In this document: positions 21,225 through 29,690 of the stretch, one piece after another
Position numbering within the stretch: position 1 is the first letter of the stretch
How the letters are laid out: every line of letters begins with the position of its first letter
NCBI GenBank assembly: GCA_030596405.1
Contig: JAUVKB010000002.1
Coordinates: 1 to 32,983 of the forward strand
DNA from: Deltaproteobacteria bacterium
GTDB taxonomy: Bacteria; Desulfobacterota; Desulfobacteria; Desulfobacterales; JAUVKB01
Length of the DNA: 32,983 nt
Direction of reading: 5' to 3'
Notes under the pieces: generated by a model
Database searches by the model: none
The model's input: the letters and a program-made list of their open reading frames with translations, nothing else
What the model was told of the DNA's origin: nothing
Position numbers and translations under genes: made by a program

Positions 21225-22075
21225 CAACAGCAATCGATGTAACAAATCTGAGCTATTCTTACGGGGCTTCCAAAGTTTTGAAGGATATCTCCTTTTCTGT
21301 TCAAAAAGGCGATTTTTTTATCATAATAGGTCCCAATGGTTCAGGGAAAACAACACTGATGAAGGTTATTGCCGGAATAGCAAAACCTGAAAACGGCCGG
21401 CTGAACGTCATGGGGCTCCCTCTTATGAACTATGCCCGGAAAACCCTGGCAAGAACCGTCTCTTTTGTCCCCCAGATGATCCCGATCGAATTTCCTTTTA
21501 CCGTAACGGAAATGGTCATGATGGGACGTGCGCCTCATATGGGTTTGCTTGGACTGGAACAGGAAAAAGATCTTGATATCACACACCGGTCTATAGATTT
21601 TACCGGCATAAAACATCTGGCAGACCGCAAACTAAATCAGCTTAGCGGTGGAGAACGGCAAAGAGTCTTTATCGCCAGGGCTATCTGCCAGGAACCACAG
21701 ATCATACTTCTTGATGAACCCACGGCTTCTCTGGATCTTGCCCATCAGGTCCGCGTAATGGATTTGATGGAAAAATTAAAGGAGGAAAAGGGGATAACCA
21801 TTATTATGGTCTCCCATGACGTAAATCTTGCCGCTATGTACGGCAATAGTCTGCTCATGCTCAAGGCAGGGCAAATCGTAAGCATGGGGCAGGTTAATGA
21901 GGTTCTCACGTTCAAAACGCTGGAAAATGCTTATGGCTGCCCATTGTTGATTGACGAAAACCCGCTTGGAAAGTTTCCCCGCATCACGCTTGTACCGCAA
22001 AAATTTATGAGTCCGGATATACGCGCCGGAAAATCGGGGAATAAAAAAAGTATATCAAGAACAATATCAAAATAA
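21221..22075 (+). CDS. ABC transporter ATP-binding protein (BtuD/FepC-like)
   Basis: The true start is ATG 21221, overlapping the permease stop (ATGA): MTTAIDVTNLSYSY... Walker A GPNGSGKTT, signature LSGGERQR, Walker B ILLDEPTASLD. The track ORF from 20990 is an out-of-context N-terminal extension. Confidence 0.9.
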   Translation: MTTAIDVTNLSYSYGASKVLKDISFSVQKGDFFIIIGPNGSGKTTLMKVIAGIAKPENGRLNVMGLPLMNYARKTLARTVSFVPQMIPIEFPFTVTEMVMMGRAPHMGLLGLEQEKDLDITHRSIDFTGIKHLADRKLNQLSGGERQRVFIARAICQEPQIILLDEPTASLDLAHQVRVMDLMEKLKEEKGITIIMVSHDVNLAAMYGNSLLMLKAGQIVSMGQVNEVLTFKTLENAYGCPLLIDENPLGKFPRITLVPQKFMSPDIRAGKSGNKKSISRTISK

Positions 22076-23194
22076 TTCGAGATCTTCCATCTTTTTTTCA
22101 TCACCAATAAAGGGTCTTAATCCTATTTTTAGCATATCATATCCCGTTACCGTACGGATATCCGTTCCAACGCCTGTTGTTACAGTCACATCAACAGGAC
22201 CTGTCAGAGGATTTCGGTTAAGCATCACTATGGCGATAATAACATCTGCGCCCAGCCTGATCTTGCCTACAAACCATATATTATCATCGCCAAGGCTAAA
22301 AGAGACTCTGGAGCTGGGAGTAAAAAAGGTGTCTTTTCCTGTGATAGATATGGCGTGACGGGTCGGTATCCATCTGCTCCCGAGTATTGCTCTGGGAGAA
22401 ATCGCGTTGATAATACCCTCATTTGCAATAGAACCTGAATTGACCGTTATTTCGGCTGTATCGCTGACGCTGTTTGCGGTATCGGTTACCCTTATAATAT
22501 CGGTTGCCTGATAACCTGTGGTGTTTGTCCCTGCGGTGTACAGTCCGTTTGCTGTTATTACACTCCCTATGCCGGTTGTTTCCATTTCAAAGCTGTAAAC
22601 CGGACTCTGGCCGCAATCCCCGGCGCTTGAAGCACTAAAATTAATGCTTTCTCCTGAATCGGCCGAGGTTTCTTTAGGGCTGACAGTTACCTTGCACGAT
22701 GTAAAACTGAACTCTCCGTCAACGGCGGTTGTCTCAAGTGTATAATTGTCTTCATCAACAAGCGTTACGTTTTCCAGTTTCAAACTTCTGGTTTCGGAAA
22801 GGGGAGCGTCTTCTTTTACATCAAAGGCAACGATAAGCACCGGCCCGCTCCCCTTTGCAATCAGGCTTAGAGACATGGAAAAAGCAAGCATTCTGGCGCA
22901 CCCGTTTTCAAGTTCGCTATAATCGCAGGAAAAACCCTCGGTGCGGGAAGTGTTTCTAACGCCTGTCACGACAAGATAATCATCCGTGTCGCAGATATCC
23001 AGCTGCAGTGCCATTACAGCGTCATCAGGATTATCAAGACTTATTATCACCTCATTCCCGGAAGAACCGGCAGCGCCGGCGCCGGCTTCGATGGCAAGTG
23101 TCACCTGAGACTGCGCTTTGGGACAGGTTGTTAAAATAATAGAAAAAATTATGCTTGCCAGAACAAATATTTTAGTAGCTGATACATTTTTCAT
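22067..23194 (-). CDS. Secreted (possibly lipid-anchored) protein: divergent cohesin-like module + Ig-like (Big_2-like) domain + IPT/TIG-like C-terminal domain
   Basis: The N-terminus MKNVSATKIFVLASIIFSIILTTCPKAQ has a signal peptide and a borderline lipobox, LTTC. The cohesin-like segment is VTLAIEAGAG...VMALQLDICD...GCARMLAFS...GSGPVLIVAFDV. The C-terminal domain ends VDVTVTTGVG, as in the 280-aa paralog. Confidence 0.7.
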   Translation of the reverse strand: MKNVSATKIFVLASIIFSIILTTCPKAQSQVTLAIEAGAGAAGSSGNEVIISLDNPDDAVMALQLDICDTDDYLVVTGVRNTSRTEGFSCDYSELENGCARMLAFSMSLSLIAKGSGPVLIVAFDVKEDAPLSETRSLKLENVTLVDEDNYTLETTAVDGEFSFTSCKVTVSPKETSADSGESINFSASSAGDCGQSPVYSFEMETTGIGSVITANGLYTAGTNTTGYQATDIIRVTDTANSVSDTAEITVNSGSIANEGIINAISPRAILGSRWIPTRHAISITGKDTFFTPSSRVSFSLGDDNIWFVGKIRLGADVIIAIVMLNRNPLTGPVDVTVTTGVGTDIRTVTGYDMLKIGLRPFIGDEKKMEDLELF

Positions 23195-23343: not shown

Positions 23344-23808
23344 TTACAGGCTTGTTCCCTTAACTGTTACATTGACCGGCTTATTGTTGATATCGGCCAC
23401 ATTTACATCCGTCAGGGTCAAATCAGCCTTTTTTGCCCGAACTCCCGGCGCAGTCTTGTAGGCAATCTTTAATATCGGCCCGATGCCCGGGGATATGGCT
23501 TTTCCGTCAAGGGAGACTAAAATCACCTTTACCCCTTTGTCGCCCAAATCATTAAACTGGGCAAGAAACCCCTTGGAGCGGACGGTCGTCATCAACCTTT
23601 GTGCGGTTGCAATATCAGGCATATCTTTTAATATGAACTCGACTCCCAGAACCGGAACATCATTTTTCATCTTGACGGCAACCTTGTCTCCAAGATTTAC
23701 CAGTTTTAAAGTCGCAACACCTGCGGTGGCGGAAAATGCAAATACAATCGTCATGGCAAAAACCAGCGCCGTTGCCGCGATATATTTTATGTGTCTTGTA
23801 CTTTTCAT
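23344..23808 (-). CDS. Small secreted single-module cohesin-like protein (divergent class)
   Basis: The preferred start is ATG 23808 (MKSTRHIKY...), because AAGGAG sits 8 nt upstream. The track start at 23826 would place that RBS inside the ORF. Signal peptide ...FAFSATAG, then one beta-sandwich-like module with VPVLGVEFIL...GVKVILVSL...GIGPILKIAYK. Confidence 0.7.
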   Translation of the reverse strand: MKSTRHIKYIAATALVFAMTIVFAFSATAGVATLKLVNLGDKVAVKMKNDVPVLGVEFILKDMPDIATAQRLMTTVRSKGFLAQFNDLGDKGVKVILVSLDGKAISPGIGPILKIAYKTAPGVRAKKADLTLTDVNVADINNKPVNVTVKGTSL

Positions 23809-23851
23809 GTCATAAACTCCTTTCATCTATATCCTGAAAATATTTTTAATT

Positions 23852-25363
23852 TTAATAATGATTAAGACAATTGTCGCGCCCGAGAATTTCCTGCACAATT
23901 GCCATAACATCGGAAATGTTTATTTCTGCATCAGGTGCAGCGCAGCCGCCGGCCTGGGTTCCGGTGGGGACATCGCCGGCCGTAAACTCACAGTCATTAG
24001 GCGTATAATCTGCCAAAATAATTTGAATGTCACGCACTACATCAAAGATGTTTATCAGGCCGTCTCCCACGGTTAAACCATCTATCGACAGTGGGTAGAC
24101 ATCTCCGAACAAACCGAGAAAAAATATGCCCGGATCTTCTCCGGCAGTCAAAGGAAGGTCGTCCGGATCGGTAATAAGCAGATTGCCGGAACTAAGTCCT
24201 ACGCATGACTGTGTTGCGGCTGCATCAACATCATAGTTAAGGGTAAAAATAGGCCCGTCGCCGGCAGCAATAACAGCTCCGGATTGAGCAAATAATATAA
24301 TCCTTGCACAACCGGCCACAGGATAGTCATCCTGCAAATCGACCGTATAGCCTGCTGTCCGGTCTGTCAGTGTAACCAAAGGCAGACTCAGCACATCCTG
24401 GCCATTGGTGATATCCACCTGAATACCGCCGACCGCAACCTCATTTGTAAGACAGACTTCTACTTTTTTACCCGTATCTCCGGGCATACCGGCTCCGTTT
24501 TTAATATCAAAGAGTAATCCAGCACATGACCGAACATCCTGATCACAATTATTAGCTTCATTGCTTTCTTCAATCATGCCGCCAAAGTCCGCGCATACTA
24601 TAATGGTATCCATTGCATCTGAACAGGTGATATCTGCAAAAGTCTGTATGTGGGAAGCGCCCGGATCAAGCGCAGGGCATCCTTGAGTTGCTGCAGGCGT
24701 TCCGTCAATGGTAAGAGATGTTATACTTGCAGGTGCCAGGACATCTCCATTATTTGTTACCGTGCAGACTACACTGTAAGTAGGGTCGGTAGTTTCTTCA
24801 TGCATCTCGCTTATAACAAGATCCGGCGCGGGAGGCGGTCCTGATCCGGTTATTACAACATCACCGCTGGTTACAGTTGACGGCACTTCAGTGCCGGTCA
24901 AGTCGCCCACTATGACATCCGACAGGTCAAGTGGACTGGTGCCCGAGGCTTCGGCCGTGAAGGTAAGGGTAGCAAAGATTCCTTGACCTGAAACCTCACA
25001 CCCTGCTCCGAGTACAACCCCTGCAAGGCCATCGATAAATCCCTGGTCCTGATAAAGTCCGCCCATGATTGAAACAAAAGTGCCGCATCCGGGAGGATCC
25101 TGGCTAAGCAGGTCACCCTCTGTCCAGCCGTCAAATTCCAGAAGATCCGGATTCCAGTTAATGTCAAACTGGACACCTGCAATCGGTGTATCCGGCGTGA
25201 CAACGATATCAACGGTAAAGGTATCTCCCGGATCCACGGTCTGGGTGGAAGGCGTGAGCACCATCGTTGTAGCAGCCGGCGCCGACGATACAAAAAACAT
25301 ACTCAGCAAAGATACGGCAAAAACCGTGAGTATAATTTTTGAAAGACTTCTTGTTTTTTTCAT
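23852..25363 (-). CDS. Scaffoldin-like secreted protein: cohesin (class 1) - CARDB - cohesin-like (class 2) - divergent dockerin-like C-terminus
   Basis: Signal peptide. Cohesin 1: DPGDTFTVDIVVTPDTPIAGVQFDINWNPDLLEF...GIFATLTFTAEASGTSPLDLSDVIVGD. CARDB: PDLVISEM...VCTVTNNGDV...LDPGASH...IEESNEANN. Cohesin 2: GKKVEVCLTNEVAVGGIQVDI...GCARIILFA...GDGPIFTLNYDV. The C-terminus has two segments, GDGLINIFDVVRDIQIIL and PDAEINISDVMAIVQEIL. Start ATG 25363 is favoured over 25369 by AGGAGA spacing and by alignment with the paralog. Confidence 0.8.
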   Translation of the reverse strand: MKKTRSLSKIILTVFAVSLLSMFFVSSAPAATTMVLTPSTQTVDPGDTFTVDIVVTPDTPIAGVQFDINWNPDLLEFDGWTEGDLLSQDPPGCGTFVSIMGGLYQDQGFIDGLAGVVLGAGCEVSGQGIFATLTFTAEASGTSPLDLSDVIVGDLTGTEVPSTVTSGDVVITGSGPPPAPDLVISEMHEETTDPTYSVVCTVTNNGDVLAPASITSLTIDGTPAATQGCPALDPGASHIQTFADITCSDAMDTIIVCADFGGMIEESNEANNCDQDVRSCAGLLFDIKNGAGMPGDTGKKVEVCLTNEVAVGGIQVDITNGQDVLSLPLVTLTDRTAGYTVDLQDDYPVAGCARIILFAQSGAVIAAGDGPIFTLNYDVDAAATQSCVGLSSGNLLITDPDDLPLTAGEDPGIFFLGLFGDVYPLSIDGLTVGDGLINIFDVVRDIQIILADYTPNDCEFTAGDVPTGTQAGGCAAPDAEINISDVMAIVQEILGRDNCLNHY

Positions 25364-25380
25364 TTTCATTTTCTCCTAAT
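24846..25380. repeat. Copy 1 of a ~535-bp direct repeat (RBS + signal peptide + class-1 cohesin module)
   Basis: Hand alignment with 26778-27312 gives no indels and about 37 mismatches (roughly 93% identity). Similarity stops abruptly at the module boundary (VVITG|). Confidence 0.85.
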
Positions 25381-25477: not shown

Positions 25478-27295
25478 TTATTGCCCTGCCAAAATAAAAC
25501 TTCCATCCTGTAATACATACACAGTCCCGCCGGATACAGACACTTCATAGATTGGCCGGAATCTGGACTGATTATACCCTTTGTCCCAGATCAATCGGAT
25601 TTTCCAGTCTTCAATCGGTTCAACCGGTTCAACGGGTAACGGTTTAATCTCTCCATGTTTAATCTCGATTGCCTTTTTTGCAAAACCCAAAGCATTTTGA
25701 GCAATTTTCAGCGCCTCTTCTTCAGCCAGATATTTTTGGTCTTCCAGACTCCAAGATGCCTGGCGGAATGTCCCGGTTTCACCTTTCACCATCAGTGCCA
25801 CGGAAGCGGTATTTTCTACCTTTGACTGACTGAAAAGTATCAGGTCATAGTCCTCCCCGGACTCCAGATCAATCACGTTCATGGCTCCACTGAGTCTGCT
25901 CTGGGAATAGATATTTATAAAATCAGGAGAAGTATAAAGCTCAACTGGGATAACCTTATCCCAGTTTACCTCTTTGAACACTTCTTCAATCTCTTTTGGT
26001 TCAATATCTATTTTGGACTTGGAAACTCTGGACATGGCAACAAAACCAGAAGAAACATCCAGATCTTTTTTTGCATCCAGAGCGCTTGCAAGTTCTTGAT
26101 CCGGCTTGCTTTCCACGTAGGTGATATTAATGGAATCCAGCGCGGCATCCAGTTCATCCATGTCAACATCCTGAGGCGGTTCTGCCACATAGCACCAACT
26201 ACCTTCAGTGGCTTGATATATATTCCTGAACTCGTCACCGGTCTGGTAAACGTTATATCCCATTCCCGTTGCCTTTGGATCATTAAGCCATGCCCCATAA
26301 AACTCTAAATCAGACGGCATTTGCCAGTCAACCCACGGGTCCTTGTTGCTTACAAAACCCCGCACCGTTTTCCAGTTATTGCTATAGGAACCGTCGGTGG
26401 GCACATGGGCCGGGGCGTTGGTCTCAGCCACATCCGGCACTTCATAGTCTATCCAGTATATCATCCGCTTGATGGCATGATCCTGGTCAGAATCCGAAAA
26501 ACCGATAAAATTATATCTTGCGGTATCAGGATTCTGGTTGGTCTGATCAGTCAGCATCCAGGCCAAATCACTTTCGTTCATGTCCTCTCCTGGAGTGCCG
26601 GTATGATATGTATTGTACAAATCAACCTGACCCGGCCAACTATAAGAGTCGTCAAAGAACCTCAGGGCTTGCAGACCAGAGGCTGCACCGGTGCAATAAA
26701 GTTCTTGCGCCTGTTCCTGTGGGAAATAGTCATTACCTTGATCATCGATCCCCAGATGATTTATGTAAATCGATGTGCCGGTTATTACAACATCACCGCT
26801 GGTTACAGTTGACGGCACTTCAGTGCCGGTCAAGTCGCCTACTATGACATCAGAAAGAACAAGAGGACTGATGCCCGCGGCTTCGGCCGTAAAGGTAAGG
26901 GTTACATATATTCCGGGGCCTGAAACCTCACACCCTGATCCGAGTACAACCCCTGCAAGGCCATCGATAAATCCCTGTTCCTGATAAAGTCCGCCCATGA
27001 TTGCAACAAAGGTGCCGCATCCGGGAGGATCCTGATTAAGCAGGTCACCCTCTGTCCAGCCGTCAAATTCCAGAAGATCGGGATTCCAGTTAATGTCAAA
27101 CTGGACACCTGCAATCGCTCTATCCGGCGTGACAACGATATCGACGGTAAAGGTATCTCCCGGATCCACGGTCTGGGTGGAAGGCGTGAGCACCATCGTT
27201 GTAGCAGCCGGCGCCGGCGATACAAAAGGCATACTCAGCAAAAACACTGCAAAAACTGCGAGTATGATTTTTGAAAAACTTCTTGTTTTTTTCAT
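25478..27295 (-). CDS. Secreted protein: class-1 cohesin fused to a ~430-aa uncharacterised region (possible clan-CA peptidase-like core and PepSY-like tail)
   Basis: The N-terminal 172 aa are near-identical to the 503/505-aa scaffoldin-like protein. After VVITG the sequence becomes unrelated: ...QEQAQELYCTGAASGLQALRFF...APAHVPTDGSYSNNWKTVRGF..., ending ...ALKIAQNALGFAKKAIE...IYEVSVSGGTVYVLQDGSFI. Confidence 0.75.
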   Translation of the reverse strand: MKKTRSFSKIILAVFAVFLLSMPFVSPAPAATTMVLTPSTQTVDPGDTFTVDIVVTPDRAIAGVQFDINWNPDLLEFDGWTEGDLLNQDPPGCGTFVAIMGGLYQEQGFIDGLAGVVLGSGCEVSGPGIYVTLTFTAEAAGISPLVLSDVIVGDLTGTEVPSTVTSGDVVITGTSIYINHLGIDDQGNDYFPQEQAQELYCTGAASGLQALRFFDDSYSWPGQVDLYNTYHTGTPGEDMNESDLAWMLTDQTNQNPDTARYNFIGFSDSDQDHAIKRMIYWIDYEVPDVAETNAPAHVPTDGSYSNNWKTVRGFVSNKDPWVDWQMPSDLEFYGAWLNDPKATGMGYNVYQTGDEFRNIYQATEGSWCYVAEPPQDVDMDELDAALDSINITYVESKPDQELASALDAKKDLDVSSGFVAMSRVSKSKIDIEPKEIEEVFKEVNWDKVIPVELYTSPDFINIYSQSRLSGAMNVIDLESGEDYDLILFSQSKVENTASVALMVKGETGTFRQASWSLEDQKYLAEEEALKIAQNALGFAKKAIEIKHGEIKPLPVEPVEPIEDWKIRLIWDKGYNQSRFRPIYEVSVSGGTVYVLQDGSFILAGQ

Positions 27296-27312
27296 TTTAA
27301 TTTTCTCCTAAT
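26778..27312. repeat. Copy 2 of the ~535-bp direct repeat (RBS + signal peptide + class-1 cohesin module)
   Basis: See copy 1. Same orientation, with copy starts 1932 bp apart. The repeat includes the TTTTCTCCTAAT (AGGAGA RBS) upstream segment. Confidence 0.85.
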
Positions 27313-28847: not shown

Positions 28848-29690
28848 CTAACCGGCGGGAACTACAGAAAAAACATCTTCTCCGATAATTACATCTCCCT
28901 TGCCGGTTGTAACCGTTACATCATAAATACCTTCGGAGATACCTGCCTTCCTGATCAGGACAAAAATCTTTAAGGTTTCATTATTTACCGGTGTTACAGA
29001 CAAGACCCGGACAGCCGGGCTTCCAAATGAGACCCCGTTTCTTGCCACACCGTCATCCTTAAAACCGGTATTTTCACCGGTAATTACAAGACGACGGACA
29101 ACACCGCGTGAAATTCCCACTTCCACGACCGACGGTTCTACAGATTTAAAAACCGGCTGTGGAACCCCGCCTGTTACCGTTATAAAACCGTCTGCTGTTT
29201 CCGACGGCACTTCAGTGCCGGTCAAGTCGCCCACTATAACGTCGGTAAGGGCAAGGGAACTTGTGCCGGAAGCTTTGGCGTGAAAACTCACCGTGGCAAA
29301 TATTCCCGGCCCTGAAACCTCACACCCTGCTCCGAGCACGACACCTGCAACACCGTCGACAAATCCATCATCAGGGTAAACGCCGCCCATGACCGCAAAG
29401 TAGGTGCCGCATCCCGGGGGATACTGGCTGAGCAGATCTCCTTCAGTGACTCCCGTGTACTCCAGAACAGCAATGTCCCAGGTTATGTCAAACTGGAGAC
29501 CCGCAATCGCGGTGCCGGGTACGACATAGACATCCACGGTAAAATCATCGCCGGGATCTACCGTTAGAGCAGAAGGATGAACTTCTACTGTCGTCGCCAC
29601 TGTTGCCGCTGCCGTTACCGGCAGTAGCAACATCGGCATAAGTAATAGAAAAAGCATAAAAACGATGGTTGAAAATCTTGTTTTAGCCAT
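28848..29690 (-). CDS. Secreted class-1 cohesin protein with IPT/TIG-like C-terminal domain
   Basis: Signal peptide. Cohesin: DPGDDFTVDVYVVPGTAIAGLQFDITWDIAVLEY...GIFATVSFHAKASGTSSLALTDVIVGDLTGTEVPS. The C-terminal domain has LVITGENTGF...VSFG...YDVTVTTGKG. Confidence 0.8.
   Translation of the reverse strand: MAKTRFSTIVFMLFLLLMPMLLLPVTAAATVATTVEVHPSALTVDPGDDFTVDVYVVPGTAIAGLQFDITWDIAVLEYTGVTEGDLLSQYPPGCGTYFAVMGGVYPDDGFVDGVAGVVLGAGCEVSGPGIFATVSFHAKASGTSSLALTDVIVGDLTGTEVPSETADGFITVTGGVPQPVFKSVEPSVVEVGISRGVVRRLVITGENTGFKDDGVARNGVSFGSPAVRVLSVTPVNNETLKIFVLIRKAGISEGIYDVTVTTGKGDVIIGEDVFSVVPAG

Follow-up and report, generated by a model that had tools for sequence, protein, structure and literature searches.

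Cohesin-dockerin systems outside the cellulose degraders are known mostly as domain annotations. A canonical dockerin consists of two tandem F-hands, each a 12-residue calcium loop (D1-x-N/D3-x-D5-G...D12) followed by a helix. In the XDoc dyads of type II/III cellulosomal systems, a beta-sandwich module lies directly N-terminal to the dockerin, without a linker, and both form a rigid pair. Examples are the X-module and type II dockerin of Clostridium thermocellum CipA, which bind the cohesins of SdbA and OlpB, and the XDoc of Ruminococcus flavefaciens CttA and ScaB. Here, we describe a minus-strand gene for a secreted 505-aa protein on contig JAUVKB010000002.1 of a Deltaproteobacteria bacterium (assembly GCA_030596405.1). 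The whole stretch of DNA analysed, positions 1 to 32,983 (32,983 nucleotides), is called the window in the following. The protein consists of a cohesin of one class (class 1), a CARDB domain, a second, divergent cohesin (X) and a divergent dockerin-like module (Y).

Cohesin and dockerin are also found on one polypeptide in Amy4 of the Ruminococcus bromii amylosome, where they recognise each other and self-association is predicted; Amy4 docks to other scaffoldins as well (PMC4611034). The 505-aa protein shares with Amy4 the combination of both module types on one chain, with mutual recognition being the feature of Amy4. The modules of Amy4 are, however, canonical, reach the scores of ordinary cohesins and dockerins, are carried by an amylase of a Firmicute host and are not described as a portable conserved cassette (PMC4611034).

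Closest in habitat are the cohesin/dockerin and CARDB adhesins of syntrophic seep sulfate-reducing bacteria (SRB) and anaerobic methanotrophic archaea (ANME), which are documented by domain annotation (PMC10553843, PMC9012536). Such cohesin/dockerin proteins are highly expressed in ANME/SRB consortia, and the S10 table of Murali et al. 2023 separates cohesin 1/2 and dockerin 1/2 groups (PMC10553843). The table also contains 'Adhesin 28, CARDB domain' (PXF58214.1-PXF58216.1), encoded by three consecutive, highly expressed genes of Seep-SRB2 with ANME-2c, and an eight-gene cohesin/dockerin run of HotSeep-1 (AMM40420.1-AMM40427.1) (PMC10553843). Judged by description, the former may correspond to the triad of cassette gene, 160-aa gene and 375-aa gene described below, and the latter to the eight-gene cluster of the window. 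Habitat, the phylum of the nearest named relatives and the occurrence of cohesin/dockerin/CARDB multi-gene clusters without cellulases are common to both. The published sets rest on library domains, whereas X and Y escape Pfam and NCBIfam. No description of a linker-less X-Y cassette, a loop-expanded dockerin or head swapping was found in PMC10553843 and PMC9012536. Cohesin/dockerin and CARDB adhesins of seep SRB were already known; CARDB-X-Y as a common cassette is new here.

The cohesin of Archaeoglobus fulgidus (2xdh) is likewise non-cellulolytic and ranks high when X is compared by fold and by profile. It differs in being archaeal, in its canonical dockerin and in having no CARDB cassette. 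Its parent protein also carries a dockerin, which is bound by the cohesin of the same protein.

The strongest likeness of X-Y is to the XDoc dyads. X is a beta-sandwich immediately N-terminal to a dockerin-type module and is predicted to form a rigid unit with it. The likeness would extend to the division of labour between enzyme-class cohesins and a dyad that docks on a second cohesin class of anchoring proteins. PDB entries 4fl4, 3kcp, 5k39, 5m0y and 4wkz are found among the fold matches. The buttressing module before Y has, however, a cohesin fold and is not the Ig-like X module of CipA/ScaB, for which reason the unit is regarded as XDoc-like and not as an XDoc member. The dockerin further differs by an insert of about 9-10 residues in each calcium loop and by conserved cysteines. 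Its host is of a Gram-negative sulfate-reducer type, and the gene cluster features neither glycoside hydrolases nor an S-layer homology (SLH) or sortase anchor. We give an even chance to the reading in which the 505-aa protein is a two-tier, XDoc-like adaptor scaffoldin and belongs to a cellulosome-like but non-cellulolytic surface system of cohesins and dockerins. Its domains are identified securely; its mechanism is not.

The second cohesin and the dockerin-like module

The open reading frame (ORF) spans 23852..25369 and encodes 505 aa from the first ATG, according to the ORF list and translation; all features of this gene lie on the minus strand. A start at the second Met at 25363 yields 503 aa, matches the start of the paralogous 605-aa protein (N-terminus MKKTRS) and is likely the true one. 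Residues 1-32 (25274..25369) form a putative Sec-type signal peptide, for which cleavage between MKMKKTRSLSKIILTVFAVSLLSMFFVSSAPA and the following A is assumed from the AxA motif. The class-1 cohesin at residues 40-173 (24851..25252) matches Pfam PF00963 with an E value of 1.9e-14 and 54.5 bits, which is above the gathering cutoff of 24.1 bits. CARDB follows as the first part of the cassette at residues 181-275 (24545..24829) and passes the cutoff of PF07705 as well (E 2.2e-14, 53.9 vs 22.7 bits). X comprises residues 283-418 (24116..24523) and is directly abutted by Y at residues 419-505 (23855..24115). Pfam yielded nothing above threshold for residues 280-505, X found no match at the gathering score of the Pfam cohesin family when residues 282-505 were scanned, and an NCBIfam scan of the 505-aa protein was without a match.

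An AlphaFold2 model of residues 282-505, based on a 46-sequence X-Y alignment, reached a predicted local distance difference test score (pLDDT) of 95.1 and a predicted template modelling score (pTM) of 0.89. It supersedes an earlier, uninformative full-length run with a 10-sequence alignment (pLDDT 54, tail below 50). All of the top 50 Foldseek matches of the X-Y model are cohesins. The best match is 6kgc_A, CohA2 of Clostridium acetobutylicum (E 6e-13, template modelling (TM) score 0.77), and 2xdh was found with an E value of 2.3e-11 and a TM score of 0.77. Comparison of the X-Y alignment profile with cohesins in the PDB yielded 6kgc at E 2e-7 over 137 positions and 2xdh at E 0.0077. Model, Foldseek and profile comparison agree on the nine-stranded jelly-roll fold of cohesins for X. 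Because of this predicted fold and the profile matches to solved cohesins, we take X to be a genuine but divergent cohesin that is missed by the Pfam model.

X shares 33% identity with the module of the 375-aa protein (E 3e-11) and 25% with that of the 160-aa protein (E 5e-7), both encoded downstream. The class-1 modules of three window proteins are 63-91% identical among themselves; the one of the 505-aa protein shares 90% identity with the 605-aa cohesin and 67% with the 280-aa cohesin. Comparisons across the classes yielded only short stretches with E values of 0.002-0.8.

Relatives of the class-1 cohesin are very few in the 5.8 billion clusters searched: the three window paralogs and P0164 and P0165, which are 45% and 40% identical. 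A word-index homolog search limited to the class-1 head added almost nothing, and neither did one limited to Y. By these searches, class 1 is rarer than the X class.

Y scores 13.6-13.8 bits against the Pfam family Dockerin_1 (PF00404; cutoff 22.9 bits), with an E value of 0.07-0.08 and coverage of the second repeat only. Dockerin_1 is nevertheless the only Pfam family that recurs among 41 Y sequences, matching 23 of them with E values from 5.6e-4 to 1, all below threshold. An hhalign comparison of Y with five canonical dockerins, three of which come from the window itself, resulted in a probability of 90.6% and an E value of 1.3e-6 with both repeats aligned. The Y profile also matches canonical dockerins in other proteins, and the canonical-dockerin profile matches the Y module of a relative (E 2e-4). 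No dockerin was found in PDB sequences by phmmer with residues 282-505 or by the Y profile. In the model, DSSP assigns helices to residues 441-451, 459-465 and 485-495 of Y (pLDDT 87-98) and a beta-hairpin to residues 469-477; the three helices follow the order of helix 1, helix 2 and helix 3 of dockerins.

Calcium-ligand positions are almost invariant in the 41 sequences. F-hand 1 (residues 422-452, 24014..24106) starts with G0-D1 (G422, D423), continues with D436-G-L-I-N440-I-F-D443 and ends in helix 1. Its D1, D5 (D/N/E), position 9 (D/N) and D12 are each kept in 41/41 sequences, and G0 in 40/41. F-hand 2 (residues 465-496, 23882..23977) features D466-VPTG, a hairpin insert with C476, P-D480-A-E-I-N484-I-S-D487 and helix 3. 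Here, D1 (D/N), D5 (D/N), D12 and C476 are found in 41/41 sequences and position 9 (N/D) in 39/41. Each loop contains an insert of about 9-10 residues and position 3 is displaced: the D1-D5 spacing is 6-16 residues across the family (12 in the window protein) in F-hand 1 and typically 12 (13 in the window protein) in F-hand 2, compared to 3 in canonical loops. We therefore regard Y as a divergent, loop-expanded dockerin with a putative function in calcium binding and docking. The rigid fusion of a cohesin with a dockerin whose calcium loops both contain hairpin inserts would represent a structural variant of a new kind.

Position -1 of Y is aromatic or Cys and a C-terminal Tyr or Cys is also present, which by analogy suggests that both residues form a clasp; a clasp of comparable kind has been described for dockerins (PMC3821032). 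Four cysteines are near-universal, C389 in X and C460, C476 and C501 in Y. The co-occurrence of Cys columns of X and Y (phi up to 1.0, confounded by phylogeny) suggests a putative inter-domain disulfide.

The original prediction, a model's reading of the sequence of the window, had described the protein as cohesin, CARDB, second cohesin and dockerin-like tail. This layout is borne out by Pfam, the fold model and the profile comparison, and all peptides quoted in its support are present in the ORF. The pairwise identities agree with its claim of two cohesin classes, in which the second module groups with those of the 160-aa and 375-aa proteins and not with the N-terminal module of its own protein. 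The prediction would have fallen with a class-2 module without a cohesin fold or with a disordered or non-dockerin tail. On the contrary, X matches cohesins in fold and profile (E 6e-13 and 2e-7, respectively), and the tail appears ordered and dockerin-like by its pLDDT values, the hhalign result and its retained calcium-ligand positions. The tail is also, as had been stated, unlike the three canonical dockerins of the window and the only one of its type there.

The CARDB-X-Y cassette and its partner genes

Residues 280-505 share 53-62% identity with the C-terminal parts of nine other proteins. BLAST alignments that reach back through CARDB give 44-58% for residues 182-505. The heads of these nine relatives are unrelated and consist of a right-handed beta-helix, PKD, metallophosphatase/CBM96 or cohesin. 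An exhaustive search with the 224 residues of X and Y against clusters formed at 50% identity found 425 cluster representatives with E values of at most 1e-3, 113 of them at E values of at most 1e-10. With this number of representatives, the X+Y region is judged to be more than a chance pattern.

Architectures were parsed with X and Y profiles in the top 156 of the 425 representatives. The order XY was the most frequent (50), followed by X only (27), XYX (13), XXY (11) and XX (10), and tandem arrays contain up to eight X modules. For 86 out of about 96 Y modules, the gap to the preceding X is at most 12 residues, and this adjacency also holds in 13 further short metagenome loci. Domains found in the heads of 48 X-Y proteins are, among others, CARDB, cohesin, TSP3, PKD, beta-helix, metallophosphatase, NosD, Kelch, LRR and cytochrome c554. 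Complete proteins that consist of a signal peptide, X and Y alone exist in several sub-lineages. A search for related loci with an alignment of the Y subfamily yielded the 13 metagenome loci and, in reference genomes, only four loci, all from two tar-biofilm Thermodesulfobacteriota metagenome-assembled genomes (MAGs). Taken together, CARDB-X-Y is, as judged from these alignments, a conserved, portable, linker-less cassette on many unrelated heads. Given the pTM of the two-module model, X and Y are predicted to form one rigid didomain with a fixed arrangement.

The pair of second cohesin and dockerin-like tail had been put forward as a trait of one scaffoldin. The pair exists, but it is found on many unrelated heads and is predicted to be one rigid body; the scaffoldin-specific framing is therefore replaced by one at the level of the cassette.

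The 505-aa gene is a mosaic. A block of about 535 bp (24845..25379) that comprises ribosome-binding site, signal peptide and class-1 cohesin is about 93% identical on DNA level to the start of the 605-aa gene (counterpart 26778-27312). Measured in sliding windows, DNA identity ranges between 0.77 and 1.0 over the stretch 25379 to about 24845 and then drops to a background of 0.07-0.27. The breakpoint at about 24840 lies just past the class-1 cohesin and coincides with the junction of head and cassette, and cassette relatives align to the 505-aa protein from residue 182 onward. Since identity to the 605-aa gene stops where alignment to the relatives begins, the 505-aa protein is a duplicated class-1 head joined to the CARDB-X-Y cassette. 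The sharp breakpoint shows recent head shuffling onto two different bodies, those of the 505-aa and 605-aa genes.

In the window and in loci L001 and L002, the cassette gene is followed by a gene for a 160-aa X-only protein and then by one for a 375-aa protein. The 160-aa orthologs of L001 and L002 are located directly downstream of the cassette gene and share 47-48% identity, and the 375-aa orthologs share 56% identity in the same position. L008 features an X-only ORF directly after the cassette gene, so that X-only genes follow the cassette gene in four loci. Loci L001-L006 contain X and Y modules, but neither class-1 cohesins nor canonical dockerins, on the basis of which X and Y are likely a cognate pair. 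A portable cassette of CARDB, cohesin and dockerin is now defined, along with the X-only genes that are conserved as its partners.

In a tree built from 274 X modules, these group strongly by context, with 41 label changes compared to about 111 in shuffles. The cassette X of the window's type forms a clade with a support of 0.999, and its sister group consists of solo X modules, among them those of the 375-aa type. These separate clades suggest specialised roles for cassette X and partner X. The 160-aa protein is a candidate partner for Y and the 375-aa protein a candidate anchored receptor for it.

The cassette is internal in a 1276-aa protein of L002 (6449-10279) and in P0013 (1000 aa; L004 1-3000), where about 500 further residues follow Y; in the L002 protein these include a second metallophosphatase domain. 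The cassette is therefore no C-terminal sorting signal. Such a function of Y itself is rejected, as Y can be internal, has no hydrophobic segment and aligns to dockerins.

P0091 (926 aa) and P0137 (493 aa) are composed of an X-type cohesin, a canonical dockerin and another X-type cohesin, and end in a tail resembling that of type IX secretion system (T9SS) substrates (…YQNYPNPF…). In XYX proteins with such tails, the middle module is thus a canonical dockerin, and the linker-less order of cohesin and dockerin also occurs with ordinary dockerins. Judged by their sequences, the hosts look like FCB-group bacteria. P0017 (932 aa) features four tandem X-type cohesins, a canonical-like dockerin and an FGE-sulfatase domain. 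Its upstream neighbour of 482 aa, encoded with it in L007 1-4339, has a canonical dockerin; in the L007 lineage, X-type cohesins accompany ordinary dockerins.

Possible assemblies

The 505-aa protein unites a class-1 cohesin and Y on one secreted polypeptide, and sequence comparison separates its two cohesin classes. In the adaptor reading introduced above, the class-1 head would hold the canonical dockerins of three beta-propeller proteins encoded in the same cluster. Y would plug, in a calcium-dependent manner, into the X-type cohesins of the proteins encoded immediately downstream (375 aa and 160 aa), with the 375-aa protein (X and a C-terminal domain termed Z) as candidate anchor. Docking of Y would mount the class-1 socket and its propeller cargo on a second tier. 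The X of the cassette itself would stabilise Y and may also take up another Y, so that chains could be extended to a limited degree. Class-1 sockets would thus serve propeller cargo, and the X/Y pair the second tier. We infer all binding partners, the calcium dependence and the anchoring; the reading rests on the X-only genes that follow the cassette gene and on X and Y being the only types in related loci. For the latter reason, the second docking tier formed by X and Y that had been proposed earlier is plausible. If orthogonal to known pairs, X-Y would be of possible interest for designer scaffolds.

Several points weigh against this adaptor reading. Y remains below the Pfam Dockerin_1 threshold (13.8 vs 22.9 bits) and its loops differ from canonical 12-residue F-hands. 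The X+Y query favours proteins that combine the two modules among the top matches and in the counts. Contigs of the related loci span only 2-13 kb, which makes the absence of class-1 modules from L001-L006 weak evidence. Moreover, a rigid, linker-less and possibly disulfide-linked X-Y is also expected of a closed intramolecular pair. In such a pair, Y would permanently occupy the binding face of the X to which it is fused, and a disulfide might hold it in place. The role of CARDB-X-Y would be limited to presenting the variable head, as an inert stalk or spacer stabilised by calcium, and the X-only neighbours would bind something else. Besides the constant adjacency and the single rigid body in the model, the split of the near-universal cysteines between X and Y and the internal cassettes with further domains after Y agree with such a pair. 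We consider it unlikely. The cysteine signal is confounded by phylogeny, and it is not obvious what proteins of signal peptide, X and Y alone would do. The occurrence of X in tandem arrays and the conservation of X-only genes as neighbours imply ligands of X in trans, the arrays and the head-less proteins both being counted as a sign of trans-binding potential, and Y is the only dockerin type seen in related loci. XDoc dyads, for their part, have a rigid interface and still bind in trans.

Head-to-tail polymerisation was part of the original prediction; generalised to the cassette, Y of one unit would bind X of the next, and fibres or a matrix would be formed. X-only proteins would then be chain starts (375 aa, anchored) or caps and competitors (160 aa). 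Each cassette does combine one socket with one plug, both of the same class, head-less proteins of X and Y occur in several sub-lineages, a small X-only gene is conserved beside cassette genes, and multimers are predicted for Amy4, whose cohesin binds the dockerin of the same protein (PMC4611034). The separate, well-supported clades of cassette X and solo X suggest different roles, however, and rigid packing of X against Y may occlude one of the two faces. Free polymerisation, which appears doubtful to us, accounts for the linker-less architecture no better than an XDoc-like unit or an intramolecular pair does. The same low degree of belief applies to a wider proposal, namely that the linker-less didomain with its loop-expanded, cysteine-clasped dockerin is a widespread, undescribed assembly tag of uncultured anaerobes, a 'socket-plus-plug' complementary to itself. 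The didomain occurs in the 425 clusters mentioned above, on heads of many kinds, by itself or next to poly-cohesin arrays. In seep sulfate reducers, surface proteins would be daisy-chained by it into the extracellular matrix of methane-oxidising consortia, with X-only proteins as anchored chain starts and caps. Still more improbable is that Y is a dockerin-derived calcium-binding cap without a role in protein docking and that X-Y is an adhesin for exopolysaccharide or the surface of a partner cell. The remodelled calcium loops, the failure of all library models to recognise Y and the discussion of seep SRB cohesin/dockerin and CARDB proteins as adhesins (PMC10553843) would be in line with it. 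The dockerin helices and ligand positions are strongly conserved, though, X-type cohesins co-occur with canonical dockerins elsewhere (XYX proteins, L007), and the conserved neighbouring X-only genes point to protein partners.

Gene cluster, host and the Z domain

The 505-aa gene is part of an eight-gene minus-strand cluster. It encodes three beta-propeller proteins, each with a canonical dockerin, three class-1 cohesin proteins (505, 605 and 280 aa) and two small ones (160 and 375 aa). Half of the system in this cluster escapes library models, which fail to recognise three out of the six cohesins and one out of the four dockerins. The plus-strand genes of the window are bacterial housekeeping genes (Mfd, SurA, RodZ, RecO, GlyQS and an ABC importer). 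The window was found again in cold-seep metagenomes, and its nearest named relatives are Thermodesulfobacteriota MAGs. Three metatranscriptomes from the same study contain no contig of the cluster, which at the low depth of the organism carries no information on expression. The host is a cold-seep bacterium of the Thermodesulfobacteriota, or sulfate-reducer, type.

The secreted 160-aa protein (23344..23826, minus strand) consists of one X-type cohesin only (X-profile E 2e-28); a length of 154 aa, as given originally, results when the ORF is counted from its second Met. The secreted 375-aa protein (22067..23194, minus strand) combines an X-type cohesin (X-profile E 2e-44) with an Ig-like middle part and the C-terminal Z. 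Its cohesin module is below the threshold of the Pfam cohesin family (E 0.0042, 17.7 vs 24.1 bits). The 605-aa class-1 cohesin protein is encoded at 25478-27295.

Z is a C-terminal domain of about 95 aa that is common to the 375-aa protein (residues 269-375, 22070-22390) and the 280-aa protein (residues 191-280, 28851-29120) and has no match in Pfam or NCBIfam. One X-type and one class-1 cohesin protein of the window thus terminate in Z, which is a candidate cell-surface attachment domain for both cohesin classes. Z is also present in 435/454-aa and approximately 585-aa proteins of L001, L002, L004 and L005 as well as in P0011 and P0127. One of the approximately 585-aa proteins has a weak CBM96 match.

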